DNA of 64,000 nt from positions 237,803 through 301,802 of the forward strand of contig CALRAM010000001.1 in the NCBI GenBank assembly GCA_943353165.1, in the 5' to 3' direction. The notes under the pieces are model-generated. The model was not told where the DNA came from. It searched no databases and worked only from the letters and a program-made list of their open reading frames with translations. This stretch comes from an uncultured Candidatus Saccharimonas sp. (GTDB lineage: Bacteria > Patescibacteriota > Saccharimonadia > Saccharimonadales > OMJO01). The position numbers and the translations under genes are program-made. This document shows positions 5,341-47,298 of this stretch, piece by piece (the stretch's first letter is position 1; the number at the start of each line of letters is the position of its first letter).

Positions 5341-6054
5341 TTAGTTTGGTTTTTTAGTTCTGTCGAAAACCATCACGGTATTAAAACCTAGCGGTTCTCC
5401 TCGAAGTTTGGCAGCCGAAGCTCGGTGATTGCTGTTAGTAGTAAACACTATTGGCTTACTGCCATCTGCCGGTAAAATAATACCCAAAGCCCCATATTCA
5501 AGTTTCGGCAATTGCGAGGCCCTAGCGGCGTAATCTTCTATGACATCTATGCTTTTACCGACCCCACTGACGCCTAAACTATCTGTATATTGCTTGCCAT
5601 GCCCCTCGCCTCTACCAGACCATCCAGTAGCTTCGTCAAATGTTCCAGTACCTACTATGACAGACGGGTCTATCCATAACAGGCCTTCTGTTTTCAAAAT
5701 AGTAGCCCGTTCATCTCCAAAATCTTCAGGCTTAACTAATCTATAAGGCATGTTTTCTAGAAATTCTATTGATTTTTTGTCAGCAATTAATGTTCTGGCT
5801 GTTTCTATGCCAGCTGTTATGTCATCTGCTGAGGGCGCACTTTCCGTAACTGGTACTCCCTGCGATCCCAATTCGGCTACTAGTACTGGGACCCATCCTG
5901 AGTCTATGTTAATAACCCCGTTTTCGTCTGGCATGGGTGATCTTTCTATGAATAATGCAAAATCTGGGTTTACTGGTGGTGTTTCTACCGTCGTATTACC
6001 AGGCATAGAATCTTCGACAGGCAGAAAGCTTGGAGGTGATGATGTGTCTTCCAT
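5341..6054 (-). CDS. hypothetical cytoplasmic protein; C-terminal segment weakly ParB/sulfiredoxin-like
   Basis: 237 aa with no TM or signal peptide. The C-terminal PIVFTTNSNHRASAAKLRGEPLGFNTVMVF resembles the ParB-N/Srx pattern (x-G/N-x-H-R-x-x-A-A-x-x-L-G). Starts 9 nt after the receiver gene. Confidence 0.4.
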   Translation of the reverse strand: MEDTSSPPSFLPVEDSMPGNTTVETPPVNPDFALFIERSPMPDENGVINIDSGWVPVLVAELGSQGVPVTESAPSADDITAGIETARTLIADKKSIEFLENMPYRLVKPEDFGDERATILKTEGLLWIDPSVIVGTGTFDEATGWSGRGEGHGKQYTDSLGVSGVGKSIDVIEDYAARASQLPKLEYGALGIILPADGSKPIVFTTNSNHRASAAKLRGEPLGFNTVMVFDRTKKPN

Positions 6055-6063
6055 ATTTAATTG

Positions 6064-6528
6064 CTACATTCTAAGATGGCGTTTTATTCTTTCTACTACA
6101 TCTGCTATTACAACCTGAGATTTTACCAAATAATCGTCTACGCCCAAGCTCATGGCTTTTTCTTTATCTGCAGGCTGGCTCAATGCCGTCAACATGACAA
6201 CTTTTAGATTGGTTGTCGCGGGTGTGTTACGAAATATATCTAGTACGTCAAAACCACTAATTTTTGGCATCATTACATCCAACAGCACCAAATCTGGCTT
6301 GAACGATATTGCCGCGGCCAATGCATCCTCTCCATTTGGCACATGAACAACTTCAAATCCCTCTGCCTGTAATCTAGTCAAATAAACCGACGCCATACCT
6401 TCATCGTCCTCTACTATCAATATCTTTTTTTTCTTTGCCGGTGGGTCCACAGGTTCAGTTTTAGGTTGGGTTTGAAATTGTGGTGTTTGGCTAGCTGAAC
6501 TTATCTGTGTGTTTGTGTTGTCTTCCAT
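6064..6528 (-). CDS. single-domain response regulator (CheY-like receiver) with low-complexity N-terminal extension
   Basis: KKILIVEDDEGM...DLVLLDVMMPKISGFDVL...VVMLTALSQP...DDYLVKS gives the canonical receiver Asp, Thr and Lys positions. There is no output domain, and no histidine kinase lies in the window. Confidence 0.8.
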   Translation of the reverse strand: MEDNTNTQISSASQTPQFQTQPKTEPVDPPAKKKKILIVEDDEGMASVYLTRLQAEGFEVVHVPNGEDALAAAISFKPDLVLLDVMMPKISGFDVLDIFRNTPATTNLKVVMLTALSQPADKEKAMSLGVDDYLVKSQVVIADVVERIKRHLRM

Positions 6529-9484: not shown

Positions 9485-9548
9485 ATATTATTCTAAAACA
9501 TAAGCGCGTACAAACTATATTGTACCGTTTAATCTTGTTTACTGCTAG

Positions 9549-12494: not shown

Positions 12495-13595
12495 CTATGA
12501 TTGTTGGACGTCAGCTCCAAGCGTATGCTCCAGAAAAGCGTCTATAAATGGATCCAGCTGCCCGTTCAGTACTGCTTCGGGGTCACTAGACTCGAACCTA
12601 GACCGCAAATCTTTAACTTGTTTGTACGGGTGTAAAACATAGCTACGAATTTGATTTCCCCAGGCCGCTTGTTCGTTTGGACCTTTTAAATCTTGCAAGT
12701 TTTCTTTGTGTTGTTCTATTTGTAATTGCGCCAATTTAGACCGTAAAATTGTCATACAGGTTTCTCTGTTTTGTAGTTGGCTTCGCTCGTTTTGAATTGC
12801 TATGACAATCCCAGATGGTATGTGCGTTACTCTGACTGCCGAATCCGTAGTATTGACACTCTGGCCACCTTTTCCGCCGCTTCTGTACACATCAATTTTC
12901 AGATCTTTTTCATCAATTTCAACTTCCTCTGGCGCATCTATTTTTGGCATTACTTCTACTTTCGCAAAACTAGTTTGACGCAAATTGTCGCTATTATATG
13001 GACTCAGCCTGACAAGTCTATGAACCCCGTTCTCGCCTTTTAGTTTTCCATAGGCATAATCATATTCGATTGTAAATGTTACACTTTTTATGCCGGCTTC
13101 TTCGCCTTTAGAGGATTCAACCAAAACGATTTTGGCTTTGTGCGATTCAGCCCAACGAACATACATCCTGTACAGCATCTGAGCCCAGTCCTGGGCGTCT
13201 GTGCCTCCAGCACCAGCGTGAATACTCATTACGACATTATGATCATCATAAGGGCCGCCCATTTTTAATAGTTTCTTCAATTTTTCTATAGTTATATCTA
13301 AAATGTCTAACTGACTATTTAACTCCTGCGCCAAGCTACTATCTCCAGTAGATAGTAGTTCTTGAATTTCGCTGATTTCATTCTTTACTTCAGACCATGG
13401 TTTAATCCTAGATTCCAGATAAGCTATCCGTTTCATTGTAGCTTGCGCAGACTGTGCATTATCCCAGAAACCAGCTAGTAGGCTTTTTCGCTCTAATTCG
13501 TCAAGCTCTGCCTCCAAATTATCTAGTTTTAGTTTTGATATAGCACCGCTAACTTCAATTGCAATCTTTTGAAGTCGCTCAGTTATTTCTTTCAT
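12495..13595 (-). CDS. prfB: peptide chain release factor 2 (single uninterrupted ORF)
   Basis: GGQ motif ([16 protein letters not shown]). The RF2-type recognition region reads GVHRLVRLSPYNSDNLRQTSF. No in-frame UGA or +1 frameshift site near codon 25. Confidence 0.9.
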   Translation of the reverse strand: MKEITERLQKIAIEVSGAISKLKLDNLEAELDELERKSLLAGFWDNAQSAQATMKRIAYLESRIKPWSEVKNEISEIQELLSTGDSSLAQELNSQLDILDITIEKLKKLLKMGGPYDDHNVVMSIHAGAGGTDAQDWAQMLYRMYVRWAESHKAKIVLVESSKGEEAGIKSVTFTIEYDYAYGKLKGENGVHRLVRLSPYNSDNLRQTSFAKVEVMPKIDAPEEVEIDEKDLKIDVYRSGGKGGQSVNTTDSAVRVTHIPSGIVIAIQNERSQLQNRETCMTILRSKLAQLQIEQHKENLQDLKGPNEQAAWGNQIRSYVLHPYKQVKDLRSRFESSDPEAVLNGQLDPFIDAFLEHTLGADVQQS

Positions 13596-19218: not shown

Positions 19219-20034
19219 TTATACCGTAGCTTTGCCTTTTGTTTTTAATGCTTTTGATTTTTGTAGATGCTCAATTGTTAATTCAGTCCTTTTTCTGGCA
19301 TAAACACAATAGTCGCATTCTCCGCCCATTGCCGCCATACCTACTGCCGGCATATCACCCTCTAGGCATTCTTTCATTTTCAACAGTGTTTTTGCCACCC
19401 ATTTGTCAGTTCCAATATGCGGAAATACGTTTGTACGGAAATTTACTACGTCGTTAAACCCGTCGGCATTTACGTCACCGTTTGCGTACACAAAATACCC
19501 TGTATCGCTCACTGTATGACCATTTGCTCTCAGTAACCATTGATACACTTCCATTTGCCGTCTATAGCTATCTTGCCATCCACCAACTGGACCTAAATCC
19601 GTAATTTCATCACTTTTTGCGGTGGCTTTGTAGTCAACGACTATAAGTTCACCTGCTGGATTCACCCAAACATCATCTACTGCGCCAAAGACGTGTAGAT
19701 TAGTGAGATCATGTACCGTGGCAACACCAGTAAAGTTGGCACGCCATTTGTCCAGATCTTTGTGTGGATATGGAATAGCATCTATCTTAAACTTCACCTG
19801 CAGTGGATGGGGAGTTCCAGCTTTTCTATGTACGTCAAATTCTTTTTTGAACAGCTCATCAATCGCTGAATTTATTCTAAAGGGAGGCCCGTTTGGTCGT
19901 TTTATCTTGAGTCGAGCATCTAGCCAAAAACACCTTGAACACTGCGTAAAAAGCTCAATCTTACTCCGAGAAACTTTAAAAACTTCTGTTTGACCAGGCT
20001 GAAATGGTTTACTTCGTTCTGTCCAATAATTCAT
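19219..20034 (-). CDS. PD-(D/E)XK superfamily nuclease, Cas4/AddB-like with Cys cluster
   Basis: Core GAVDD...ELIVVDYKATAK (D...D/E-x-K). One N-terminal Cys pair (CSRCFW) plus a C-terminal GGECDYCVY, suggesting an Fe-S ligand pattern. The probable start ATG at 20034 forms an ATGA overlap with the rsmE stop. Confidence 0.6.
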   Translation of the reverse strand: MNYWTERSKPFQPGQTEVFKVSRSKIELFTQCSRCFWLDARLKIKRPNGPPFRINSAIDELFKKEFDVHRKAGTPHPLQVKFKIDAIPYPHKDLDKWRANFTGVATVHDLTNLHVFGAVDDVWVNPAGELIVVDYKATAKSDEITDLGPVGGWQDSYRRQMEVYQWLLRANGHTVSDTGYFVYANGDVNADGFNDVVNFRTNVFPHIGTDKWVAKTLLKMKECLEGDMPAVGMAAMGGECDYCVYARKRTELTIEHLQKSKALKTKGKATV

Positions 20035-20717
20035 ATTCCTACTATTGTAACAGCTGCAACGCATGCGGTCTCGGCTCGGAGCGTAAAGTCGTGAATATTC
20101 AGACGCTTAACACCCTTAGATTCAAACAAACTTTTTTCCGAATCCGACCAACCGCCTTCTGGTCCAACGAAAATTCCTACGTTTTTTGAATCAATTTTTG
20201 TGTCTTCGCTTTCTTGGTCACACATATATAGCTCTACTTTATCATTTAGCTCGTCTATGGCGCTTAGCAGACCGATAGGCTCTCTAATGGTAGGTATATC
20301 GCTACGCCCGCATTGTTCGGCAGCTTCTATAGTTATTTTTTTGGCACGTTCTATGTCAAAGCCAGTTTTTTCAGTTCGCTCGGTTATCAGTGGAACAAAA
20401 TGACTGACTCCCATTTCAGTACACTTCTGGAGCACCCAATCATTTTTGTCTTTTTTCAGCAAAGCCCATAGCATATAAACGTTTTTCTTTGGAATTTTTC
20501 TGACATAGTCCGTAATGTGCTTTAGGTGAGCTTCGTCTTTGGATATTTCTGATATCTTAAAAAGTCGATCATGCTTTAGTCCGTCAAACAATACCACTTC
20601 TTGTCCAGCCCTAAAACGAAGCACCCTATTCCATTGGTTCAATATAGCTTGGTCTCTCAACCAAAAGTCGTGTTCCAAGGCTGTGTCCGACCCAACAAAA
20701 AAACGATGCAACCTCAT
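20031..20717 (-). CDS. rsmE: 16S rRNA (uracil1498-N3)-methyltransferase RsmE
   Basis: MRLHRFFV N-terminus and the C-terminal SPOUT knot region FVGPEGGWSDSE ... LRAETA. Confidence 0.8.
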   Translation of the reverse strand: MRLHRFFVGSDTALEHDFWLRDQAILNQWNRVLRFRAGQEVVLFDGLKHDRLFKISEISKDEAHLKHITDYVRKIPKKNVYMLWALLKKDKNDWVLQKCTEMGVSHFVPLITERTEKTGFDIERAKKITIEAAEQCGRSDIPTIREPIGLLSAIDELNDKVELYMCDQESEDTKIDSKNVGIFVGPEGGWSDSEKSLFESKGVKRLNIHDFTLRAETACVAAVTIVGI

Positions 20718-20724
20718 ATGATTT

Positions 20725-21570
20725 CTATTTTTTGAGACCGATTATCAGGATGACCGCAAAAGCAGTTTTAGAGAACAAAGATATCAATGCATAGTTACGC
20801 TCTATAAATGAATAATCTTTCCATTGCTTGTAACCCGTGTTTTGTAGAAGTTGGTTTAGAGCTAATAGAGTAAAACTGCCCAGAGAACTAACGTACAGAG
20901 CATATATGTACCACGGAGCTCTGACTGCAGCCAAAAACGGAGTAGCAACTGCATAGCCAAATATTAACATCCATGGCAAGGAGCCAGTTACCAAACTAGC
21001 TATAAAAGTTGGCATAACCAATTTTTTGGCTTCTTTTGCTTGTCGTTCTGCCATCCAACCCAGAAAGCATGTCGTAGCCATCAAGCCAGCTATGAGTTTT
21101 AGAGTAAATATGTCTGTCACTCCAGACAATACAGCGATTATCATAACCATTATAGCTGTAGTAATACCCAAATCTATCCAGCGCAAGGTAAGAACGCGAT
21201 TCTTCATAGCCTGCTGGTGTTGTTTCTGTAAACGCATAATATACAAATAAGGAACGATTATAGACAGCACCAATACTATCAATATAGCCGACCGAATCTG
21301 TAAATCAAATGCGGGTTGACTACCGGGCACCAAAACAGCGCTTGTTTTGCTGGCTAGTTCGTCTTTGGCTAGAAAGCCCCAAGTTAGCTGATATGTAACT
21401 TTGCTAACCATTGTTACTACAGCCAAAGCCAATATGGCGTACACAACAATGCTAACTTTATAAATGTCCTGAATTTGCTTGTTTAGATCTATTTTTTTGC
21501 TCATATTTCTATAATACCACAACCCTCGATGCGTATATATTATTTTATCGGTTCGTATGGTTTGTGACAA
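20725..21570 (-). CDS. heliorhodopsin-like seven-TM retinal protein
   Basis: Seven hydrophobic helices. TM3-TM7 align by eye with heliorhodopsin 48C12 as I recall it (RWID vs RWVE; FLGWMAERQ vs LFGWLQEKY; PWMLIFGY vs PWIGLLIY; ERNYALISLFSKTAFAV vs ERAYIVLSLVAKSALAW), including the TM7 Lys. An alternative start at the Met at nt 21504 would remove the 31-nt overlap with msrA. Confidence 0.7.
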   Translation of the reverse strand: MSQTIRTDKIIYTHRGLWYYRNMSKKIDLNKQIQDIYKVSIVVYAILALAVVTMVSKVTYQLTWGFLAKDELASKTSAVLVPGSQPAFDLQIRSAILIVLVLSIIVPYLYIMRLQKQHQQAMKNRVLTLRWIDLGITTAIMVMIIAVLSGVTDIFTLKLIAGLMATTCFLGWMAERQAKEAKKLVMPTFIASLVTGSLPWMLIFGYAVATPFLAAVRAPWYIYALYVSSLGSFTLLALNQLLQNTGYKQWKDYSFIERNYALISLFSKTAFAVILIIGLKK

Positions 21571-22037
21571 AACCCTACACCTGTTCTCTCTGTATATTTT
21601 TGATGATAATCCTCTGCTTCATAGAATTCGCTAGCAGGAGTTATTTCTGTAACTATAGGGTCTTTGTAGTCAGACTGGCAAGCACGTAATACATTCTGGG
21701 CTGATATTTTTTGTGAATTATCAAAATAAAAAATTGCAGATCTATAGCTGTCGCCGATATTTGGGCCATCTCTATTTAAAGTAGTGGGATCGTGAAGCCT
21801 AAAAAAGTGCTTTAGCAAATTGTCGTAGCTAACTTTTAGTGGATCAAATTCTATCAATACCGCTTCTGCGTGTCCGGTGGTATGTGTGCAGACTTCTTCG
21901 TACGTTGGATTTTTGGTATGCCCTCCTGTATATCCTACAGTAGTTTTTTGTACGCCAGGTACTTCGTCAAAATAATATTGAACTCCCCAGAAACAACCCC
22001 CCGACAACAAAGCCTTTTGGTTGGTGTTATTTTTCAT
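21540..22037 (-). CDS. msrA: peptide-methionine (S)-S-oxide reductase MsrA
   Basis: Active-site GGCFWGVQ motif. The 165-aa length is typical. Confidence 0.9.
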   Translation of the reverse strand: MKNNTNQKALLSGGCFWGVQYYFDEVPGVQKTTVGYTGGHTKNPTYEEVCTHTTGHAEAVLIEFDPLKVSYDNLLKHFFRLHDPTTLNRDGPNIGDSYRSAIFYFDNSQKISAQNVLRACQSDYKDPIVTEITPASEFYEAEDYHQKYTERTGVGFCHKPYEPIK

Positions 22038-22038
22038 A

Positions 22039-23412
22039 CTATTCAGTTCTCAGGGCTTCTATCGGGTCTAGTTTAGCGGCTTTTCTGGCTGGTAATAGAC
22101 CGGCTAGAATTGCAACTATCATCAAAATAATTATCAATATAATTATTTGTAAAGCTCTAAATATAAGCAGTTTATTTCCCACTCCTAAATCTAGTTTTTC
22201 GGTAATCCAAGGATTCAAAGCCGTTCCAACTGCCAGTGCCGACAAAGACCCTATGATTCCTCCCAGAAAACCAATCCAGGCCGCCTCAAATCGAAAGAGC
22301 TTTCCGATATCTCGTTTTCTCATACCTAACGCTTTCATCAATCCTATCTCGCTTGTTCTCTGTAAAACGCTGATATACATTGTATTTACTATTCCAAAAA
22401 CGGAAGCAATAATGGCTATCATTCCAAAAGCCACAACTATACCTCGCAAAACAGATATTATTTGAGTCAAGAATTTTTGGGTATCTTCGACACTATTTAC
22501 AAAATATTCGGCTGACTGCAGAGTTTTTTTGGCCGCCAAGAGTTTGTTGTTGTCGTTTCCGTCTTTTACCCTGGCATAGACGAAGGCGTATTTGTGGTAG
22601 TCTGCTGTGCCCAAAGTAGCATAGTCATTAAGTACCTGCGCATCCTCTACCCCGATGAACATATACAGTTCGGTGCCTGGCTGAGAAGACATTGGTTTTT
22701 TCATTATGCCCACAATAATGAACTGCTGTTCCAGTGTGGCCGTGTCAAAAGCAGACTCTATTTTTTTAGAACTGTCCAGCGTTCCGTTTTGAGCCAATGA
22801 ACGTACTGTAGATTCACTAAACGGACGGCTAACTACCAATGTTACAGATTTGCCAATTGCATCATTCGGGCTGCTAAAACCCAGCGCAGATACATAGGCT
22901 TCTGGCAACAGAATGTTTTTGTTATTTAAGGGTTTGGGTATTTTGCCTGCTAGGATTTGTGGGTTTTGGGCGGGGCTAAAACCCTGAGCTGTACCAACAT
23001 ATTTTTTTTGGCCTGATCTAGTTATATAGCGCAAATTTACGCTCGTTCCTAGCCGGATTTGTTCTATGTCAGGCTGGCTTTTTATTTTGGCCAGATCTTC
23101 GTCGTTCAATCTTTTGGTCTGAGTAGTAGCACCCGCATTTGATACAGAACTAACAAAACTACTATCGTATTCTTTTGGTTTTGTTCTGTCCCCACTTTGA
23201 AAAACTGTCTGGTCTTTGGCGACTATCAACTCTGCTGGGTCAAAATTGTCGCTAATAATTTTGTTTACATAACTCTGTGCGCCATTACTAGCAGCTAGGG
23301 TCATAGTCAGTGCAAACGTACCTACCGCAATAGCCAGAGCCGTCAACAGAGTTCTAGCCTTGGCGCTTTTTAGACTACGGCTAGAGCGCCTTAGTATGTC
23401 GGTGTAATACAT
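22039..23412 (-). CDS. ABC transporter permease, MacB/FtsX-like
   Basis: TM1, a ~270-aa extracytoplasmic domain, then a C-terminal 3-TM FtsX-type module (ISVLQRTSEIGLMKALGMRKRDI). Shares a start/stop nucleotide with the ATPase gene. Confidence 0.8.
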   Translation of the reverse strand: MYYTDILRRSSRSLKSAKARTLLTALAIAVGTFALTMTLAASNGAQSYVNKIISDNFDPAELIVAKDQTVFQSGDRTKPKEYDSSFVSSVSNAGATTQTKRLNDEDLAKIKSQPDIEQIRLGTSVNLRYITRSGQKKYVGTAQGFSPAQNPQILAGKIPKPLNNKNILLPEAYVSALGFSSPNDAIGKSVTLVVSRPFSESTVRSLAQNGTLDSSKKIESAFDTATLEQQFIIVGIMKKPMSSQPGTELYMFIGVEDAQVLNDYATLGTADYHKYAFVYARVKDGNDNNKLLAAKKTLQSAEYFVNSVEDTQKFLTQIISVLRGIVVAFGMIAIIASVFGIVNTMYISVLQRTSEIGLMKALGMRKRDIGKLFRFEAAWIGFLGGIIGSLSALAVGTALNPWITEKLDLGVGNKLLIFRALQIIILIIILMIVAILAGLLPARKAAKLDPIEALRTE

Positions 23413-24107
23413 TATTTTTTTCTACTTTCTTTTGTTTTACTCATACGCTCTATACTGCCGTCTTTTAGCCTGATCTGGGTCAAGCACTTGCTGGCCAATT
23501 CTTCGTCGTGAGTAACTATTACTAGAGTACACCCCAGCTTCTTGTTCAAACCAAACAACAAACTCATGATTAAATCGCCCGTAGTGCTGTCCAAATTTCC
23601 GGTGGGTTCGTCTGCAAAAATTAGTTTTGGCTTGTTGACTATCGCGCGAGCTATGGCCAGTCTTTGCTTTTGCCCTCCGGACAAATTGCTAGCCAAGTTA
23701 TAGACTTTGTCTTCTAACTCTACGGCTTTTAGAGCTTTTAGCACCATATCCTTGCGGTGGCGTCGTGGTACTTTAGCTATCTCTAGTGGCAGCATTACAT
23801 TTTGATAACATGTTTGGTTGGCCTCCACAAAAAATGACTGAAATATAAAGCTCATCTGCTTGGCCCTAAAATTATCCATAGCTCTAGACTTCATAGCGTG
23901 TAGTTCCTGGTCGTCAATTACTACGCTACCACCACTAGGGTGATCTAGGCCACTCATAATATGCATTAGTGTAGATTTTCCAGAACCACTCTTGCCGATT
24001 ATTGCCAGCGTGCTTCCATCTGGAATTTCAAAAGAAACGTCTTTTAGAGCCAAAAATAAATTGTCTTTTTTCCCATACGCTTTGTTTAGGTTCTTTACGA
24101 CTATCAT
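23412..24107 (-). CDS. ABC transporter ATP-binding protein, MacB/LolD-like
   Basis: Walker A GKSGSGKST, signature LSGGQKQR, Walker B LIFADEPT. Confidence 0.9.
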   Translation of the reverse strand: MIVVKNLNKAYGKKDNLFLALKDVSFEIPDGSTLAIIGKSGSGKSTLMHIMSGLDHPSGGSVVIDDQELHAMKSRAMDNFRAKQMSFIFQSFFVEANQTCYQNVMLPLEIAKVPRRHRKDMVLKALKAVELEDKVYNLASNLSGGQKQRLAIARAIVNKPKLIFADEPTGNLDSTTGDLIMSLLFGLNKKLGCTLVIVTHDEELASKCLTQIRLKDGSIERMSKTKESRKK

Positions 24108-33286: not shown

Positions 33287-34345
33287 ATGAACTCCAAAGA
33301 ATCACAATACCGCACAGAATACACGGACCTGCAGACCAAACTTCAGGACACTTCTATATTTGGATCAAAAGAATACCCAGTTTTGGCCCGCCGACTCAAC
33401 AAACTGGAAGCCATAATTGGTCTATTTGATGAGAGGCAAAACCTGACCACCGCCCACCGCCAAGCCACAGAACTGGCAGACAGCACAGACGCCGAACTGG
33501 TGGCAATGGCACAGCTAGAAATTGCCGAACTTGACCAAAAACTCAGCCAAAACGCCGCCCTACTAAACGAAAAGCTAATTACCACAGACCCAAACGATGA
33601 AAGAGATGTCATCATAGAAATCCGGGCGGCTGCAGGTGGCGACGAATCTAGCCTTTTCGGGGGAGAACTATACCGTATGTACGCCCGCTGGGCAGAAAAC
33701 AACAACTACAAGCTAGAACTCATCAGCGAGAGCCCCAGCGAAGTTGGCGGATTCAAGGAAATTATATTTGCGGTTCGGGGCGAAAACGCCTACCAAAAAC
33801 TCAAGTTTGAAGCCGGTGTACACCGCGTCCAACGAGTACCAGCCACAGAGAGCCAAGGTCGTATCCACACCAGCACAGTCACGGTCGCAGTACTGCCGGA
33901 AGCCGAAGAAACTGACATAGAAATCAACCCCAGCGATTTGCGAATCGATGTCTACCACGCCAGCGGACACGGCGGACAAAGCGTCAACACCACAGACTCT
34001 GCCGTTCGCATAACTCACCTGCCGTCTGGACTAGTAGTAACTTGTCAGGACGAAAAGTCACAGACCAAAAACAAACTCAAAGCCATGGGAGTTCTCCGTT
34101 CCAGATTGCTCCAGGCACAGATAGAAAACGAACAACAAAAACTTTCTGACGCCCGAAAAAAACTAATTGGTTCTGGGGACAGATCAGAAAAAATCCGTAC
34201 CTACAACTTTCCCCAAGACCGCATCACCGACCACCGTATTGGGTACAGTCGCAGCAACATACCTGCCGCCCTAAATGGCGACATAGACGACCTAATCGAA
34301 CAGCTCCATACATTTGAGCTACAAATACTCAGTCATGAAAGCTGA
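33287..34345 (+). CDS. prfA: peptide chain release factor 1
   Basis: PAT anticodon-mimic motif ([14 protein letters not shown]) and GGQ ([15 protein letters not shown]). Confidence 0.95.
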
Positions 34346-38667: not shown

Positions 38668-41600
38668 CTATCTGATTACATGGTAGTAAAACGTCAGGGT
38701 TTTACTTATAGTCGTTGTGGTCTGTGTACCCAGCACAAATGTTGTTGCGGTCGGGGTGGCATAGTAGTTTAGGTTCTCGCCTGCTGTGACAGAATCTCCT
38801 GGAGTCAATACCACCATTGGTGCGGTAGTATAGGTCGTCCCAAATGTCACCGTTACTATAGTTCCTGCTGCGCAACCCGACGCACCAGTCGTAACTACTA
38901 TCTTGCCAGCAGTATCATTGCCAGCGGAACTTGTAGCAACTCCGCCAGTACAGGCAGCTGCACCCACAGCAAATGCTGTGGCCGTCGAACCAACACTGTT
39001 GCCAGATATAATATGCCCTGCAAATGTTATGCCGCCAGTTCCAGACGCCAACAACAGGGAGCTCGCACCAGTTGACGAACCTAGCGTTACCGTCTGGGCA
39101 GCTGCCCCTGTAGCTATATTTACCGTCCGGGTAGAGGCAGACGTACCTATTCCTATAGTACCCGTTCCTGCTTGTAGCGTCAGCGAGCTACCCCCAGTAG
39201 ACGAGCCTACCGTTACTGCTTTGGCATTTGCACTGTTACCTATATTTACAGCGCCCGTTGTACCAGAGTCTAGAGTCAGGGTACTGCTAGTTGTTGTATT
39301 GATTGTCAGCCCACCAGTGCTGGTTATGGCAGTAGGGGATAGTTTCAGTGTTGTCGCTCCGGCTGCGGTGCCTACAGCCAATGTTCCTGCAGCAGTCCTA
39401 TAAAATACGGTATCGTTGTCGTAGCCGAAGGATACTCCTGAATTGTACGTAGTGGGCGTTGCCAGATCAGCCCCTAGTTGCAGTGCGGAAGTACTAGAGG
39501 TTGAAATAGAGACGCCGAAGTTATATGTACCGACAGTTTGCGGCCCGACAGACAGCCCTACAGCACTAACTATTGAACCGCTACTAGAATTTGTGGCTGA
39601 GCGTACAATCAGCCCATAAGCAGCCTCTAGCACCGTACTACCCGTGTTGTTCACGCCGAAAGATCCGCCAGCTACAGCGTCCGTTAGGCCGGTCAACCCA
39701 TTGCTTTGGGCCGTAGCGTATACTCCCGAGCATACATTGCCAAAAAAGAATACGTGCGGACAACCAGCTGGGTTGGTGGTGGCGGTAAAATCATGATGTA
39801 TCCCTAATGCGTAAAAAGCGTTTGGAGTGCCGCCAGAACCTATGGACACAATCCCATCTATATCCGCATTGGCACTTACCGCTAGCCCGGTATTTCCCAA
39901 GGTCGCGCTATTTGCCAGTCCAGCTGTTAACAACTGAGAAACCGTTAATGCACCGGCGTTAGTTGTAGTAATACCTGCTCTACCTAGGCTTATGGCTGTT
40001 TGGGTTGAACCACCTATAGTCAACGTCCCTGCAGCTGCCCTATCTAGTGAATTGGCCAATACACCGGCAAACTGAGGTGTTGCGCCAGTGTTGATGTTTT
40101 GGATGGTGTTTACAGCCCCAGAGCTGACACTAAAGTTGGTGCTGTTAAAGCTGGCTATGCCTTTGGCTGAAGTACTGGCATCGTCTATGGTTAGCACCCC
40201 GCCCGAACCAGTGGCATTGTTTACAGTAACCACTCCTGTTTGTCCATTAATGCTAGTAACCCCACCGCCAGCTCCACCCGTACAAGCATTGAAGCTCAAT
40301 ACGCCAAACCCATTACTCTGCAAACAATCGCCGTTACTGCCCGCAGTTGTAGGCAATGTCAGCACTAGGTTTGCCGCCGTAGCTCCACTTTGCAGGGTAA
40401 TAGTGTTGGCGTTGGTAGAGTTGTAAAAGAGTAAACTACCGGTTGTAGTGCTGGCTTTACCAGATGCAAAACCACCGGCTTCGTTCAGGATAGTTATACC
40501 GCCTGTTTCTTGCAGGATGGAGTTTTCCAGGTTGTAGGCTGCGGTAAACTTAGGCAGGTAGTTTGCCGTGCCTCCAGACGAACCAACGCTACCTCCAGAT
40601 CCTACACAGTTGCCACTGCTTAGACATACCACTCCAGCTAAATCTGGGAATGTAATTGCCCTGTTAGCGGTTAAGGCAGAAGAATCCAGGGTAGCATAGA
40701 AAGCATTTGTTTCATTGCCCACTATGACTAGTCCATTTGTAGTGTCAGCTCCCAGTATAGTGTTGCCCGCGGCATTCTGTATCTGGAAGGCTGTTGTTGT
40801 ATCAGTCTGATTTTTAAATAGTGCATTGCCCCGCACATCGAGTGAAGTAGTTGGCGCATTGATACCTATGCCAACCTTGGAGCCAAATCCTGTTACACTA
40901 GACGCCGCCGTACCTCCGCAGGTCCATGTACCGTCATCAGTTGCAGGAGAGCTGGTAATCGTAGTTGGCACAGTTACAGTACACTTCAGCTCAGCACCCG
41001 AACTGGTGCTTCGATAAAAGTTATAGCTACCCGCACCTGTAACCGCTGTAAAGTTGATAGATAATGAGTTCAGATTAGTTCTGGCGGTGTTGGAGCCCGG
41101 TATTGCTCCACTTGGTGTAGTAATATTATCTGTTGCTGTAGTGGATGTATTATTAGCAATTGTCTGGTCAAGCAAGAAAGCTCCGCCATTAGTGCTGCGA
41201 TATATTTTACGAGAAGTTGTCCCTGAACCTCCTAGCGGGATAGCCGTCAAGGTAATCTGTTTACTTGAGACATTTACCAATGTATTGCTGATAGTTCCCC
41301 CATCAGTCTCGCCATTTGCAGTTACAAAAGTGACTTTATAGTTACAGCCAGTGGCGTTACATGTAACATTTCCTGCCGTAACAGAAGCAGTCGCAGTTAA
41401 GGCTGTTGGCGCCGTAAGCGGCGTCAATGGAACTGAAAGCTCAGCAGAAGGAGCAGACTCGCCACCGACCCCAACTGATGTTACTTTGTAATAATAGGTG
41501 CTCGCCGCACCAGAGAGTGAGCCGCTACTATTCGAAATCGTTCCTGTTGTGGGTGTGCTTGGTGTCGTAAAATTGTTTATGACGAAATTGCCCTGAGTAA

Positions 41601-44600
41601 CGTTTACATTCCCACCGCTTGTATCCGCAGAGAATAGACTAGCACCGCTAGCATTTTGTATATTAAATGCTGACGTGGAGTTGGTGGTGTTTCTGAACAA
41701 AGACGCTGCTGCGCTATTGAACCCATAGCCCGCCACCGTAGTACTGGTACCAATATTCACACTGGAGCTTGCGGCATCGACGCTGAATATGTTGGCGCTA
41801 CTATCGGAGTTCTGAACTATTAGGGCCGTAGTTGAAGTAGACAGAACTTTTACAACACCATTTACATCAGACGACAGGCTGTTGGCGTACACCATTTTGT
41901 CGCTGGTTACTCTAAGTGGTGCGGATATTGGATCTCTACCTTCATTTATGGTATCTATATAGACGCCAGAGTACGGCAGGGTTTTACTACCCAGGCTGAC
42001 GCCACCGCCACGAACTGTGGCCTGTGAAAGGGCACAGGTTAAGTCTACACAGTGTACAACGCTGTTGTTTAGGCCAACATTAGTGCCGCCAGCAGCTCCA
42101 CCATTTGCTACAATTATCGGAAAACCATCATTACCTATTAACGCTGTGGAGTTTTGGCCATAATTATAAAAAGTATTTCCAAATGGAATGATCGTTGGCA
42201 ATGTAGGAGCTAAACTACTACATGTCAAGTTAGCGCAATGTGCTATGTAGAGGGCGCTGGCGGTATGTGCGTATGTGATTATCGGTAGGCCATCCACACC
42301 AATCGTCATACTAATATTATTTTGAGAACCTCTAACACTACCATTAATAGCTACATCAGATACCACAGCTGGTCCTGAATATGACGAACAGGTAGATGTA
42401 AGGCATCTATACGCTATAATAGGACTTCCTACAGCAGATATGTTTTGTGTAATAATTACAGGCTTACCGTCTGCGATGGCCATGGCTGTATTTTGACCAA
42501 TATTATTGCCGGGATAACTTATTGTATTGGTGGTGGATGCAGTGGCAAATAGACTACAATTCGTATCGTTACAGCGTGTAACATTTATTGTGTCAGTGCC
42601 GTCTTCGTTTCGGTAGGCGACTATCGGGACACCGTCTTGTCCTTTACTTGCTGAAATATAATCGCCGGTGTTGCCAGCCGATATTTTCTGCTCCGTGTTC
42701 ATTGCAGTACAATTTTTGTCTGTGCATCGCGTCAAAACTATGTCATTAGAGGTGGCGTTCTTATGAAAGAAGAGTGGTATGCCATCAGCACTTAAAACGC
42801 CATTTACGTACCATCCAGTGGTATCATTAGTAGTCGTTTGCAGGATCCTATTGCCACTGGAACAGTCATTTTGCGTACAGACTATTACGAATATCTTTTT
42901 TGCCGCGGTGTCGCGTACAGCGATAATTGGTAGGCCGTTCTCCTGCATGATAATACTGCTATAGGTGCCGATATCATTTCCGGAGCCATATGGACTACTG
43001 AACGAGGTTGTAATGACAGCTTCAGCCGGAAGAACGCTACTACATGTAGAATTTTTACACTTTTGAACAACAAACTTATTGTTTGTGGAATCCTTAACTC
43101 CAATTATCGGCTTGCCGTCACCACCCATTGCCATCGTTGTTCCACTATTAGTGTAGTCAATGACACCCTGTTGAGAAAGTTGCGATAACGTTCGTAGTTG
43201 CGAGGTGCTAGAACTTGTAAAGCCTGGATTAATCAGTGCGTTGGCACTGTCTACCGCTAATATGCTGCTTCCGCTGGCATTTTGTACAGCAAATGCAGTG
43301 GTGGAATCTGTAGTATTTCTAAACACTGCCTGTCCGCTTCCGGAAATATCGCCATTTATGCTGACTCCTTGCATGAAAGTTGCTGCGTCAGTTACTTGGA
43401 ATCTACCAGCTATTAATGTATTTCCTGCTGTCAGGGTGCCTCCGCCGCTACTACTCTGTAGGCCATTGCCACCTAAACCAACCAAATCTAGCGAGCCACC
43501 TACATACGTGCGTGGACCGCTGGCATACTGAACCTCACCCAGATTTGAACCACTGACAATATAAAAGTACCCGTTGGCGGTTGCCATACCCAAAGCTCCT
43601 GATCCCGTAGTCAAGGTGCCCGATATTTGGGTAAATGTACCCAAAGATCCAGAAGCGCCAATTTGGGCATATTCGTAACTGTTTAATCCACTTCCGCCGA
43701 CCGCATACATGTATCCATTCATAACCCCTACACCCAGATATCCCCTAGCAGTGGTCAAGACACCGGTCAGTTTTGTCCATGCCCCCAACGCACCCGTACC
43801 ATCACTGTTTATCAGCGTTCTGTATATATCTTCTTGGCCAACGTTTGAACTATTTTCACCACCAACATAGTACAGATATCCGTTTGATACGATTGCCTGT
43901 CCGCCCATCCTAGCATCCGTCAAAGCAGGCGGGGCCGTAAGTGGTGATGTACAGGTGCTGCCGCTGACACAAAAGGAACCAACCGATCCATCGGCATTTA
44001 GTTTGGCATACTGCACAGAATTAGTTGGCGTACTAGGATAGCCATAATAAGCAGTTGTAGCGCCTCCAATTATGTAGATGTATCCGTTGTGAACCACTAC
44101 GCCCGGACTAAGAACTGCTGTCACCATCTTGTTGTCTGCCAATTTCCAGCTAGAAATAGTTCCATCACTTTTTATTGCACCGTAGTAAATAGTCGTTGTT
44201 ACTGCAGTGGTAGAATCTGCACCACCTACAACATACATGTATCCATTGTCAATAACTGCCCCCGGAAATTCTCGCTCGGGGTTTGTGCCACCCAGAGGTA
44301 AAGTGGCGGCCCATGCACCAACTGTACCATTTGGGTTTATTGGGGCGTATGATACACCTGCCTGCAAGCTTAACCCATTATAGCCGGCAACTCTGTATAG
44401 GTATGACCCGTTTGAAACAGTAGCATGCTGATTCCAAAGAGACCCAAGGCTAGTTGTATTCGCCCATGCTTGCAGTGTTCCAGAGTTGTTGCCATTGATA
44501 TTTATAACACTATTTGTAGTATCAATATTAAACAGTTGTGCTCCAGCTGCATTTTGAACCTGAAAGGCAGTTGTGGAATTGGTGCTATTTTTTGCTAGGA

Positions 44601-47298
44601 CAGCAGTATTTATGATTCCCGCCGGACTGACACCGAATACCGAAGTGCCGGCAGTGTTCTGAACTTCAAAAACATTTGTAGATTGGTTGGTATTTGCCCT
44701 GGCTACAAGTGTAGCGGCCGTGTTGGTGCCTGCAGTGTTAGTTGTCTGAAATAACCCAGATGCGTTAGTTTCACTCTGGCCGAGCACACCGTAACCACCA
44801 CCACCAACACCTTTTACTCCACCACCAACACCAAAGCTCTGGGTGCCGACAACTCCATAAGACAGATTGTTGTTTGTGGTACCTATAAATGCGTTTCCGG
44901 CTGTATTTGTGGCGTTTATGGTGCCCTGCAATGTGTCCGCCCAAAATATCGTTGTTCCGCCGCTCTGCTTTATGTTAAATGCCGCACTGTTGTCCGCAGA
45001 GTTTTGGAAGGTTGTGCTTCCAGTAGCCCCGACACTGAACAGATTGGCAGTACCAGAGTTTTGGATCTGTAACAAATCGGCTGTCTGACCAGCTGCACCG
45101 CGAATTAATCCACCAACATAGCCGATGTTGGCGCTTTGAATAGCAAAGTTGCCGTTGGTTTGCACGCCATTACCGTTCTGGATATAGTTACCCGAACCAC
45201 TAGAGGCTGCACAGCCAGCCAGGTTACAAACAACAGTGCCAGTAATACGCAACGAAGCTACCGCAGAAGTCAGGTTTACATCGCCATTTACATCTAGTGC
45301 ATAACCACTTGGATAGGTGTTTATGCCCACACGCTTGTTCAGGGTGTCAACAACCAGAACATTGCTGGTCCCTGCTGCATCTAGAACCCTGAAAGCCCCT
45401 GTCGTGTCCGACGTATTTTGAAATGTAGCAGCTCCAGTGGCTGTAACATTAAATAAATTAGTACCGGCGCTGTTTTGCAACTGGAATAGATCTGCGCTTT
45501 GACTAACAGCACCTTTTATAACGCCGCCAACATATGTGGCATTAGCTGATTGAATGGCAAAGTTAGCACCCCCCGGTTGTATGCCGTTGCCGTTTTGTAT
45601 ATAGGAACCGCTGCCTGAAGTTGCATCACAACCACTAGCGGTACATTTTATGTCGCCGCCTATGCGGAGAGCAGAAGTTCCAACTATGTTTATGTCTCCG
45701 TTGACATCTAGTTTGTAGGCAGGCGCTATACCGATGCCAACGTAATTTAGGTTGGTGTCAGCTATAAACAGATTTGAAGTACCAGCGGCGTTTTGTATAG
45801 AAAACGCTGTAGCAGAATCCGATGATGGCCTAGCAACTACATTACCCGTACTGCCAACACTAAATACAGGTGTTGCGTTTGATATCTGTAGCTCCAGCAG
45901 GCTAGCAGACTGGCCAGCAGCGCCCCTAACTTTAGCTCCTATGTATGTGGCATTAGCTGATTGAATGCCAAAGTTAGCATTCGATTGTATGCCGTTTCCG
46001 TTCTGAATATAGGAACCGCTGCCTGAAGTTGCATCACAACCACTAGCGGTACATTTTATGTCGCCGCCTATGCGGAGAGCAGAAGTTCCAACTATGTTTA
46101 TGTCTCCGTTGACATCTAGTTTGTAGGCAGGCGCTATACCGATGCCAACAAGACCTGTAGATGTATTTGTATCCACATTCAAAACTCCCGAACCTGCAGA
46201 GTTTTGTACCTGAAAAGCTGTGACAGAATTTGTGGCAGTACGAATACTGGTATTTCCAGTAGCCCCGACACTAAACACAGAACTACCAGTGTGCTCCTGC
46301 AACTCTAGCAGGCTACCAGACTGAAATATTACTCCCTGAACAACCAAGCCCTTGTTTGCCAAGGCTCCCGTAGCTATCACAGTCTGGGCCAACCCGTCTG
46401 GGCTAGTAGGACTGTTTATGCTCAACTTGTTACCTGGTGTTGCGTTGCCGATGCCAACATTACCACCTGCCGCTACCGTCAGCCTAGTAATGTTATTTGT
46501 TATAAAGTTCAAATCGTTGTTATCCGTGGTACCCAGTACGCCAGTAGCAGCAAAGGCGTTGCCTCCCTGCAAAAAAGCGTTTCCGCTACCGCTGGCACAA
46601 GCAGAAAAGCTCAGAGTTCCTGCGCCATCGGTAGTCAGACATTGGCTGATAGCTCCCCCGTTTGCTGGTAGCGTCAGGGTTACATTGGCCGTACCGGCGG
46701 CGGCTTGCAACAACACGGCGTTGCCATTAGTTCCGCTCAATTTCAATCCACCAAAGAGTGGCGAAGCTGTAGTAGCCAAATCTTGGGGCAATTTTGTGCC
46801 AAATGTAGTCAGCAATGCCAAAACTTCAACTTCTGTCAGCCCCACAGCATCGCTGTTTGCTATGGTCAAATAGGTTGTACCGTTGTAGTACCGCAAATCT
46901 CCGGTTGTGCTATCCAAATAAACTTGACCCAAAACAGAAGTAGTTGGTTCGACAGTTGGATTGATGACCAATCCCTGCGTAGTCTGTAACTGACCGTTTA
47001 TAACCACCCTGTCAGTTTTATCCAAGGTCAGTGGGGTTGTGTTTTTTGCCAGCTTGCCCAAATCCACATCCTGAGTTTTGACCTGACCATTGTTTGACGG
47101 TTTTTGGTTTTTGGCCAGATTACCCTTTAAAAACAACAACCCAGCGACCAGGGCAACAACCAATATTATAACGCCAAAAACCCACTTCCAGGGGATCTGT
47201 TTCCCGACTGGCAGTTTTGGCGCAGGAACAGTCGTCGTTTGAACTGTTGGTGGTGCGTCAAGTGCTACCGATTCACTTCGCCATTGTTGTTCTTCCAT
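38668..47298 (-). CDS. giant (2,876 aa) membrane-anchored surface protein with tandem beta-rich modules, Kelch-like propeller, Cys-pair repeats and FN3-like segments
   Basis: Single uninterrupted ORF. A ~36-aa N-terminal stub is followed by one TM (WKWVFGVIILVVALVAGLLFL). The rest is T/G/S/A/N-rich with very few charged residues. See findings for the domain map. Confidence 0.85.
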   Translation of the reverse strand: MEEQQWRSESVALDAPPTVQTTTVPAPKLPVGKQIPWKWVFGVIILVVALVAGLLFLKGNLAKNQKPSNNGQVKTQDVDLGKLAKNTTPLTLDKTDRVVINGQLQTTQGLVINPTVEPTTSVLGQVYLDSTTGDLRYYNGTTYLTIANSDAVGLTEVEVLALLTTFGTKLPQDLATTASPLFGGLKLSGTNGNAVLLQAAAGTANVTLTLPANGGAISQCLTTDGAGTLSFSACASGSGNAFLQGGNAFAATGVLGTTDNNDLNFITNNITRLTVAAGGNVGIGNATPGNKLSINSPTSPDGLAQTVIATGALANKGLVVQGVIFQSGSLLELQEHTGSSVFSVGATGNTSIRTATNSVTAFQVQNSAGSGVLNVDTNTSTGLVGIGIAPAYKLDVNGDINIVGTSALRIGGDIKCTASGCDATSGSGSYIQNGNGIQSNANFGIQSANATYIGAKVRGAAGQSASLLELQISNATPVFSVGSTGNVVARPSSDSATAFSIQNAAGTSNLFIADTNLNYVGIGIAPAYKLDVNGDINIVGTSALRIGGDIKCTASGCDATSGSGSYIQNGNGIQPGGANFAIQSANATYVGGVIKGAVSQSADLFQLQNSAGTNLFNVTATGAATFQNTSDTTGAFRVLDAAGTSNVLVVDTLNKRVGINTYPSGYALDVNGDVNLTSAVASLRITGTVVCNLAGCAASSGSGNYIQNGNGVQTNGNFAIQSANIGYVGGLIRGAAGQTADLLQIQNSGTANLFSVGATGSTTFQNSADNSAAFNIKQSGGTTIFWADTLQGTINATNTAGNAFIGTTNNNLSYGVVGTQSFGVGGGVKGVGGGGYGVLGQSETNASGLFQTTNTAGTNTAATLVARANTNQSTNVFEVQNTAGTSVFGVSPAGIINTAVLAKNSTNSTTAFQVQNAAGAQLFNIDTTNSVININGNNSGTLQAWANTTSLGSLWNQHATVSNGSYLYRVAGYNGLSLQAGVSYAPINPNGTVGAWAATLPLGGTNPEREFPGAVIDNGYMYVVGGADSTTAVTTTIYYGAIKSDGTISSWKLADNKMVTAVLSPGVVVHNGYIYIIGGATTAYYGYPSTPTNSVQYAKLNADGSVGSFCVSGSTCTSPLTAPPALTDARMGGQAIVSNGYLYYVGGENSSNVGQEDIYRTLINSDGTGALGAWTKLTGVLTTARGYLGVGVMNGYMYAVGGSGLNSYEYAQIGASGSLGTFTQISGTLTTGSGALGMATANGYFYIVSGSNLGEVQYASGPRTYVGGSLDLVGLGGNGLQSSSGGGTLTAGNTLIAGRFQVTDAATFMQGVSINGDISGSGQAVFRNTTDSTTAFAVQNASGSSILAVDSANALINPGFTSSSTSQLRTLSQLSQQGVIDYTNSGTTMAMGGDGKPIIGVKDSTNNKFVVQKCKNSTCSSVLPAEAVITTSFSSPYGSGNDIGTYSSIIMQENGLPIIAVRDTAAKKIFVIVCTQNDCSSGNRILQTTTNDTTGWYVNGVLSADGIPLFFHKNATSNDIVLTRCTDKNCTAMNTEQKISAGNTGDYISASKGQDGVPIVAYRNEDGTDTINVTRCNDTNCSLFATASTTNTISYPGNNIGQNTAMAIADGKPVIITQNISAVGSPIIAYRCLTSTCSSYSGPAVVSDVAINGSVRGSQNNISMTIGVDGLPIITYAHTASALYIAHCANLTCSSLAPTLPTIIPFGNTFYNYGQNSTALIGNDGFPIIVANGGAAGGTNVGLNNSVVHCVDLTCALSQATVRGGGVSLGSKTLPYSGVYIDTINEGRDPISAPLRVTSDKMVYANSLSSDVNGVVKVLSTSTTALIVQNSDSSANIFSVDAASSSVNIGTSTTVAGYGFNSAAASLFRNTTNSTSAFNIQNASGASLFSADTSGGNVNVTQGNFVINNFTTPSTPTTGTISNSSGSLSGAASTYYYKVTSVGVGGESAPSAELSVPLTPLTAPTALTATASVTAGNVTCNATGCNYKVTFVTANGETDGGTISNTLVNVSSKQITLTAIPLGGSGTTSRKIYRSTNGGAFLLDQTIANNTSTTATDNITTPSGAIPGSNTARTNLNSLSINFTAVTGAGSYNFYRSTSSGAELKCTVTVPTTITSSPATDDGTWTCGGTAASSVTGFGSKVGIGINAPTTSLDVRGNALFKNQTDTTTAFQIQNAAGNTILGADTTNGLVIVGNETNAFYATLDSSALTANRAITFPDLAGVVCLSSGNCVGSGGSVGSSGGTANYLPKFTAAYNLENSILQETGGITILNEAGGFASGKASTTTGSLLFYNSTNANTITLQSGATAANLVLTLPTTAGSNGDCLQSNGFGVLSFNACTGGAGGGVTSINGQTGVVTVNNATGSGGVLTIDDASTSAKGIASFNSTNFSVSSGAVNTIQNINTGATPQFAGVLANSLDRAAAGTLTIGGSTQTAISLGRAGITTTNAGALTVSQLLTAGLANSATLGNTGLAVSANADIDGIVSIGSGGTPNAFYALGIHHDFTATTNPAGCPHVFFFGNVCSGVYATAQSNGLTGLTDAVAGGSFGVNNTGSTVLEAAYGLIVRSATNSSSGSIVSAVGLSVGPQTVGTYNFGVSISTSSTSALQLGADLATPTTYNSGVSFGYDNDTVFYRTAAGTLAVGTAAGATTLKLSPTAITSTGGLTINTTTSSTLTLDSGTTGAVNIGNSANAKAVTVGSSTGGSSLTLQAGTGTIGIGTSASTRTVNIATGAAAQTVTLGSSTGASSLLLASGTGGITFAGHIISGNSVGSTATAFAVGAAACTGGVATSSAGNDTAGKIVVTTGASGCAAGTIVTVTFGTTYTTAPMVVLTPGDSVTAGENLNYYATPTATTFVLGTQTTTTISKTLTFYYHVIR
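45599..45741 (-). repeat. 143-bp core of tandem coding repeat, copy B (identical to 46007-46149)
   Basis: Base-for-base identity read directly. Encodes GIGIAPAYKLDVNGDINIVGTSALRIGGDIKCTASGCDATSGSGSYI. Confidence 0.9.
46007..46149 (-). repeat. 143-bp core of tandem coding repeat, copy A (identical to 45599-45741; period 408 nt)
   Basis: Base-for-base identity read directly. The flanks are similar but diverged, with a 3-nt indel on one side. Confidence 0.9.

Follow-up and report, generated by a model that had tools for sequence, protein, structure and literature searches.

Within a window of 64,000 nucleotides from an uncultured Candidatus Saccharimonas sp. (NCBI GenBank assembly GCA_943353165.1, contig CALRAM010000001.1, forward-strand positions 237,803 to 301,802; coordinates below refer to this whole stretch unless another locus is named), a minus-strand gene at 20725..21504 encodes what sequence profiles and a predicted structure identify as an intact member of the heliorhodopsin (HeR) family with the HeR fold, in which the Schiff-base lysine of the seventh transmembrane helix (TM7) is retained and an aspartate stands in the place of the counterion glutamate. 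Judging from alignments, this aspartate is not peculiar to the gene, being carried by most members of a large radiation within the Saccharimonadia, here called the D-type. The reading that I favour, at a probability of roughly 0.6, is that this intact HeR, with its Lys246 and Asp111, would serve as a slow light sensor or regulator that scavenges its retinal. The function of HeRs is unsettled and their chemistry is known almost wholly from 48C12 and TaHeR, proteins with the Glu counterion and the His-His pair; the window gene represents a large natural clade that has an Asp counterion, a threonine for the compensating serine, and none of the cavity histidines that have been proposed as the Schiff-base proton acceptor.

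The family assignment comes from several directions. The protein matches the Pfam profile PF18761 (Heliorhodopsin) at 128.7 bits (E=3e-37, profile positions 10-239 of 242) where the cut-off is 26.7, and the NCBIfam equivalog NF038020 ('heliorhodopsin HeR') at 121.8 bits where the cut-off is 100, so that an earlier note on this DNA, which had recognized a heliorhodopsin from the letters alone and proposed just such a profile search as a check, is borne out by both curated thresholds. Among PDB sequences, phmmer gave significant scores to HeRs only (48C12 at about 3e-20, TaHeR at about 1e-17 to 1e-18), and the alignment to the 48C12 chains 6su3/6uh3, which spans residues 31-275, pairs RWID with RWVE (counterion E107) and SLFSK with SLVAK (K241), reproducing with HMMER what had earlier been aligned by eye. 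The Bac_rhodopsin profile gave no match to the protein even at E up to 1, and the TM7 residue four before the lysine is a serine, not the aspartate of the type-1 D-x3-K motif. An AlphaFold2 model built from a 19-sequence alignment (pLDDT 87, pTM 0.84) contains the seven transmembrane helices that the note had counted, together with the long AB-loop beta-hairpin typical of HeRs (residues 37-47 and 58-69). When this predicted fold was compared with solved structures by Foldseek, the closest was TaHeR (6IS6, TM-scores 0.87/0.90), the second-best was the E108D mutant of TaHeR (7CLJ, 0.85/0.88), and 48C12 (6SU3/6SU4) scored 0.82-0.85, which places the solved HeRs at 0.82-0.90, whereas type-1 rhodopsins reached 0.66 at most.

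Residues were mapped by alignment with 48C12, whose numbering was checked on H23, H80, E107, S237 and K241, and those of the window protein are numbered on its 259 amino acids. K241 of 48C12 becomes K246 (codon AAA, 20767..20769, minus strand), S237 becomes S242, completing the SxxxK motif S242-L-F-S-K246 on TM7, and S76 becomes S81. E107 becomes D111 (codon GAT, 21172..21174, minus strand; motif RWID) and S111, the Ser112 of TaHeR, becomes T115 (codon 21160..21162, minus strand), so that TM3 carries a type-1-like D-x3-T pair. Unchanged, in 48C12 numbering, are R104, W105, E149, P172, W173, Q213 and E230. The usual single TM3 counterion of HeRs, a glutamate described as conserved across the family, is here Asp111; the carboxylate is retained and the counterion role is plausibly preserved with it. 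The polar Schiff-base cavity of His23, His80, Asn101 and Tyr108 is replaced by Tyr22, Pro85, Leu105 and Leu112, and two further changes are Y92 to H96 and M141 to Thr. The lysine in SLFSK, the Asp for Glu and the missing histidines of TM1 and TM2 had all been read correctly by eye. According to Kovalev et al. (2020), the residues of the Schiff-base cavity are strongly conserved throughout the HeRs, and the cavity is the presumed proton acceptor; this residue set defines HeR subfamily 1 more than the whole family. As to orientation, segments that would be cytoplasmic with the N-terminus inside (the N-terminus and the BC, DE and FG loops) contain 13 Lys or Arg residues and the other side contains 6, a count that, together with the basic N-terminal tails of relatives, favours as a prediction the inverted topology of HeRs, with the N-terminus in the cytoplasm and the C-terminus outside.

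The extent of the subfamily became apparent from an exhaustive phmmer search over 1.84 billion representatives, which returned 803 matches with E no higher than 1e-3, 79 of them reaching 1e-30 or better, and from a MAFFT alignment of 169 rows comprising the 150 best representatives, proteins from an earlier homolog search, the window protein and 48C12. In this alignment the counterion position is occupied by D in 85 rows, while 32 rows have E, 14 have Y and 11 have G. At the H23 position F or Y appears in 110 rows and the His itself in 5; at the H80 position P or S accounts for 117 rows and His for 10. Counted over 179 relatives, Asp occupies the counterion position in 94; the commonest combination is Asp with Lys (70/168), and where the two occur together Asp107 is joined by Thr111 in 54 of 76 cases and is also accompanied by F/Y and P at the two His positions. 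A crude neighbour-joining tree with 48C12 as its root puts the canonical H/H/E/K proteins at the base, and the Asp forms constitute a large radiation in it. The earlier note had put forward the E-to-D change as a test case: the Asp is real, and it is no isolated variant, since most members of a large clade carry it. On these sequence comparisons the D-type is a diverged sister or paralogous lineage specific to the Saccharimonadia.

Canonical HeRs also occur in Saccharibacteria, and one locus holds both kinds in tandem. On contig CAZPWF010000003.1 of a Saccharibacteria metagenome-assembled genome (MAG; locus L005), a canonical HeR at 8970-9773, with H23, H80, RWIEY and SLVAK, is followed at 9833-10753 by a D-type HeR that has a Lys/Thr-rich N-terminal tail and is 27% identical to its partner, an arrangement which suggests that the D-type lineage arose by duplication at this genomic slot. 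Such tails, which are 40-90 amino acids long, open with a conserved MATTTK or MATTKK and consist of 24% Lys, 19% Thr, 16% Ala and 11% Ser, are present in 99 of 180 relatives (for example the proteins P0012-P0017 and the HeR genes of loci L005-L018, such as L010:9785-10726), while the subclade of the window gene, and the gene itself, are without one. Being basic, the tail would presumably remain on the cytoplasmic side; in its richness in lysine it resembles the polycationic tails that bind nucleic acids or lipids.

How far do the known systems carry over? The subfamily 1 prototype 48C12 (6SU3/6UH3) shares with the window protein the family, the seven-helix fold and AB-loop hairpin, and the residues R104-W105, E149, Q213, S76, S237-x3-K241, P172 and W173, but the two are only about 22% identical and differ in the Asp for E107, the Thr for S111 and the absent His pair. 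The E108D mutant of TaHeR is likewise a HeR with an Asp counterion and flanking hydroxyls. Tanaka et al. (2020) found that E107D of 48C12 and E108D of TaHeR keep the wild-type spectrum, with Ser112 and Ser78 re-bonding to the Asp, and by analogy Asp may well be workable as counterion in the window protein, which keeps the hydroxyls S81, T115 and S242 near the Schiff base. The mutant, however, is an engineered single substitution in a canonical background that retains S112 and both cavity histidines, whereas in the window protein the Asp occurs naturally, the S112 position is Thr and the His pair is missing, and therefore the finding of no spectral shift is not simply transferable.

Much of the wider setting is already in the literature. 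HeRs are known from candidate phyla radiation (CPR) bacteria and Saccharimonadia, external retinal is known for Saccharibacteria rhodopsins, the E-to-D mutants have been studied by spectroscopy and structure, and NCBI already applies the HeR name; Bulzu (2021) mentions HeRs in Patescibacteria and proposes a role in mitigating oxidative stress. Chiriac et al. (2022; PMC9166423) report 98 HeRs in 86 CPR genomes, 80 of them in Saccharimonadia, describe new clades, suggest an oxidative-stress role, and give SLVAK, SLIAK and SFVAK as motifs, with SLVAK among the commonest in CPR HeRs. Those proteins share host lineage and family with the window protein and differ from it in having canonical-type motifs, such as that of the HeR at L005:8970-9773, where the window protein reads SLFSK; the text consulted makes no mention of the Asp/Thr/no-His type, of members without the lysine, or of a common slot. 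In the literature searched, what seems not to have been described is the Asp/Thr/no-His subfamily at residue level, the loss of the lysine with Arg-Asp pairing, and the common genomic slot. Neither the occurrence of a HeR in the CPR nor its dependence on retinal from elsewhere is thus new, and the novelty is smaller than the earlier note supposed, because Asp is the majority state, CPR HeRs were published in 2022, and E107D/E108D were characterised by Tanaka et al. (2020).

Under the favoured reading, the protein would insert with its N-terminus in the cytoplasm, and all-trans-retinal, which the cell would not make, would be taken from the host or the surroundings and bound to K246 through a protonated Schiff base whose charge D111 would balance; once illuminated, the HeR would cycle slowly and, as a sensor or regulator, modulate a partner protein, and ion pumping would not be expected. 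Given the missing cavity histidines and the Thr in place of Ser111, the proton-transfer steps and colour tuning would be expected to differ from those of 48C12 and TaHeR. That the chromophore would have to come from outside, as the earlier note had proposed on finding no retinal or carotenoid synthesis gene, agrees with the content of the window: neither blh/crt nor any other carotenoid or retinal enzyme was found by Pfam among its 55 substantial open reading frames (ORFs; 64 kb of genome), the seven ORFs that match no Pfam family yielded nothing relevant to blh/crt even at E up to 1, and the sole isoprenoid enzyme is UppS. It also fits the work of Jaffe et al. (2022; PMC9296517), in which rhodopsin-bearing Saccharibacteria were without blh and added all-trans-retinal was bound rapidly. 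Their SacR proteins are similar to the window protein in host group and in the dependence on external retinal that is presumed for it, but they are type-1, DTS-motif, outward proton pumps of opposite membrane orientation, and the Bac_rhodopsin and Foldseek results above set the window protein apart from them.

For the regulatory step the models are other HeRs. Cho et al. (2024; PMC11109279) describe regulation by HeRs of glutamine synthetase, photolyase and an ABC exporter, and the pairs AbHeR-glutamine synthetase, HeR-photolyase and OcHeR-OmrDE offer, by analogy, a pattern for light-dependent modulation of a partner. These are canonical Glu/His proteins of Actinobacteria, and genes for glutamine synthetase, photolyase or a type-I ABC exporter are absent beside the window gene. 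An ABC transporter does lie two genes from it, as in the comparison, but of MacB/FtsX type: a permease at 22039..23412 and an ATPase at 23412..24107, both on the minus strand (Pfam FtsX, MacB_PCD and ABC_tran), two genes upstream. It is a candidate partner solely through the OcHeR-OmrDE analogy, and it is conserved backbone in the related Saccharibacteria loci compared. The small proteome of Saccharibacteria does narrow the search for a signalling partner.

Several observations weigh against a light-dependent role and have to be set beside these. No transducer, kinase or other obvious partner stands beside the HeR gene, where the neighbours are housekeeping genes of the backbone. Among the 179 relatives the Schiff-base position holds Lys in 131, another residue in 47 and a gap in 1, and the losses reach into the window protein's own subclade (49-66% identity), where P0005, P0009, P0010, P0011 and the HeR of locus L003, all 49-55% identical to it, carry Arg. 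Fitch parsimony on the neighbour-joining tree counts about 21 changes of Lys state, a rough figure from a distance tree without support values. Nor is the entropy of the retinal pocket raised in members without the lysine (mean 2.06 bits versus 2.06 bits), as had been anticipated for a relaxed pocket; the equality would suit a scaffold constrained mainly by something other than the chromophore, in a test that is non-discriminating. The label of photoreceptor given in the earlier note accordingly stands as far as HeR family and lysine are concerned, while the light function is inferred and close relatives do without the lysine.

From these same data one may argue that the protein is a HeR-derived membrane protein independent of retinal, whether a structural or regulatory partner or a binder of lipids or carotenoids, and that its lysine is a dispensable remnant. 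The 47 proteins without the lysine comprise 28 with Arg (P0013-15 are further examples) and others with Q, T, L, V, A, I, H or Y. The TM3 carboxylate is kept by 24 of the 28 Arg replacements as against 3 of the 19 neutral ones (Fisher p=2.4e-6, uncorrected for phylogeny), which looks like a built-in Arg-Asp salt bridge that would replace the protonated Schiff base/counterion pair and preserve the fold. The residues R104, W105, E149, E230 and Y226 are conserved whatever the Lys state, 10 of 27 complete HeR-like genes lack the lysine in a sample collected independently of HeR (described below), and type-1 rhodopsins without the lysine (Rh-noK) are known. Against this, the window protein retains K246, unlike the Rh-noK type in which the Schiff-base lysine is replaced, and it retains it together with D111, S242, T115 and S81; Asp or Glu plus Lys is still the majority state among relatives (92/168). 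The gene is also maintained by purifying selection, like its housekeeping neighbours: against a 96% identical relative (locus L109) it shows 34 nucleotide and 10 amino-acid differences and a ratio of non-synonymous to synonymous rates (dN/dS) of 0.14, where msrA has 0.11, rsmE 0.21 and the ABC permease 0.07 (neighbours spanning 0.07-0.21), though this is silent on which property of the HeR is kept. On balance I consider a retinal-independent role for the window protein unlikely.

A broader proposal, which I hold as tentative and rather unlikely, is that the Saccharimonadia HeRs form a natural series from rhodopsin to non-rhodopsin, with dozens of independent losses of the lysine, Arg-Asp/Glu pairing and, in some, a counterion on TM7, the core function being independent of the chromophore and residing in the R104/W105/E149/E230/Y226 cluster, and light modulating the Lys-bearing members only. 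The TM7 counterion is suggested by the Lys-bearing relatives with a non-acidic position 107, 19 of 32 of which have Asp at the S237 position. A literature search for HeRs without the lysine found nothing relevant. If the series were real, the role of HeRs would be most readily learnt in a minimal CPR genome, where possible partners are few, and the D/K, D/R and canonical E/K genes that occupy the same slot bear both on the need for the His cavity and on function as a retinal-free scaffold.

The D-x3-T pair also invites the thought of a light-driven or light-gated ion transporter like the giant-virus V2HeR3, with the pair as a type-1-like proton acceptor on TM3. D111 and T115 have the spacing of D85 and T89 in bacteriorhodopsin, the S112 position is Thr in most type-1 rhodopsins (Tanaka et al., 2020), proton transport has been reported for a viral HeR, as relayed by citing papers, and CPR cells have few other routes to a proton gradient (Jaffe, 2022; PMC9296517). 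But the third motif position is Ile122, neither a carboxylate nor another donor, the cytoplasmic cavity is more hydrophobic with Tyr/Pro/Leu/Leu for His/His/Asn/Tyr, and the frequent loss of the lysine in relatives would be odd for an energy-yielding pump. The bacterial and archaeal HeRs tested so far are not known to pump, and transport is, to my mind, very improbable here.

A last alternative arises from the gene immediately upstream, msrA (21540..22037, minus strand), which encodes a peptide methionine sulfoxide reductase (Pfam PMSR, 208 bits) on the same strand and ends 35 nt before the HeR ATG. The two might form a photo-oxidative-stress module in which the HeR senses light and binds or activates MsrA, much as AbHeR regulates glutamine synthetase, and an oxidative-stress role has been proposed for HeRs (Bulzu, 2021; Chiriac, 2022; PMC9166423). 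In the Genome Taxonomy Database (GTDB), a HeR peptide pattern found 18 loci, 17 of them informative for msrA: msrA directly adjoins the D-type HeR in 14 and is two genes away in a fifteenth (L005), five of the loci have a different msrA (about 42% identical) in divergent orientation, and the adjacency recurs in two more distant relatives. A sample not selected through HeR was then drawn from 80 metagenomic loci (L029-L108) for which the anchor was the PD-(D/E)XK gene, two genes downstream; 30 of them have at least 5 kb upstream. Of these 30, 8 carry both genes, 11 a HeR without msrA, 8 an msrA without HeR, and 3 carry neither (odds ratio 0.27, one-sided p 0.98 for positive association), and D-type-like HeRs have msrA in just 1 of 6 cases. 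The functional coupling was rejected on this lack of co-occurrence in the HeR-independent sample, and the module strikes me as improbable; a literature search for HeR together with methionine sulfoxide reductase found nothing.

What the anchored loci do reveal is a deeply conserved backbone (LysRS/ABC ... RsmE/PD-(D/E)XK/SerRS) with one variable slot, which HeR and msrA may each occupy or not. With a HeR-like gene in 19 of the 30 loci and msrA in 16, the two are necessarily neighbours whenever both are present, and their adjacency is therefore no evidence of coupling. The 27 complete HeR-like slot genes include 7 canonical H/H/E/S/K forms and 4 with Asp plus Lys in addition to the 10 without Lys. 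On the downstream side the backbone resumes with an rsmE-like 16S rRNA methyltransferase gene (20031..20717, minus strand; Pfam Methyltrans_RNA and PUA_4), which starts 7 nt past the HeR stop. In two HeR loci without msrA the divergent upstream gene resembles by eye Hsp20 (L013:9117-9614) or SPFH/stomatin (L017:8171-8917). A syntenic, Saccharibacteria-like contig (JGI Ga0502304_0722028; L027:8748-10184) carries a Pup_ligase gene (PF03136) with the PD-(D/E)XK gene on one side and the SerRS gene on the other; pupylation is a trait best known from Actinobacteria, among which Saccharibacteria have hosts.

The boundaries of the HeR gene deserve a word. The maximal ORF on the minus strand, 20725..21570, has a TTG start and 281 codons for amino acids, and contains all four peptide strings quoted in the earlier note. 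The true start is likely the ATG at 21504, giving a coding sequence (20725..21504) of 259 amino acids, MSKKIDL...GLKK, that ends at the TAG at 20727..20725; this is preferred because most homologs start at MSKK or its equivalent and have 258-259 amino acids. The 22-codon in-frame TTG extension (21505..21570, minus strand) overlaps the 3' end of msrA and is retained in close relatives only, where it overlaps conserved msrA DNA, and it is probably an untranslated artefact of maximal-ORF calling. Gene calls in public records give either 259 or 281 amino acids, and the exact 281-residue product is found on 20 public contigs from several samples, including the NCBI MAG GCA_964805395.1. Shortly before the HeR ATG, and still inside the 3' end of msrA, a sigma-70-like site, TTGTCA-17-TAAAAT (21542..21570, minus strand; 10/12 matches), could be a separate HeR promoter, in a region where promoter-like sites are not in excess (20 versus a shuffled expectation of 16.6); no terminator was found downstream of the HeR gene.

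As for the organism, the genome is that of a Saccharibacterium (CPR), in keeping with the reduced, CPR-like genome of the earlier note: all 18 GTDB species-representative loci that encode a relative belong to Saccharibacteria, Saccharimonadales or 'Patescibacteria group' MAGs with a common gene order, and a member of the protein's 90% cluster is named 'heliorhodopsin HeR [Candidatus Saccharibacteria bacterium]' at NCBI. Rfam and tRNA scans for taxonomic markers found nothing in the window. By their codes, the source samples may belong to studies of freshwater reservoirs. The window itself is a dense, mostly single-strand run of housekeeping genes, among them SecA, HPF, SerRS, RsmE, class-I LysRS, GreA, RseP, UppS, RRF, EF-Ts, S2, RF1, RF2, FtsEX, FtsZ/A, class II ribonucleotide reductase and PriA. 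A 2,876-amino-acid ORF at 38668..47298 (minus strand), without a Pfam family, has one N-terminal transmembrane segment (residues 34-63) followed by some 2,800 residues in which Thr, Gly, Ala, Ser and Asn abound, and is probably a giant cell-surface protein, of a sort common in CPR genomes. A stand-alone response-regulator receiver protein of 154 amino acids (6064..6528, minus strand) adjoins a 237-amino-acid ORF without a Pfam family (5341..6054, minus strand), and no histidine kinase was seen in the window. Two class-I release-factor genes with PCRF and RF-1 domains, at 12495..13595 (minus strand) and at 33287..34345 (plus strand), the second followed by PrmC, are by size and position likely RF2 and RF1, and the presence of both is consistent with a standard genetic code free of UGA recoding.

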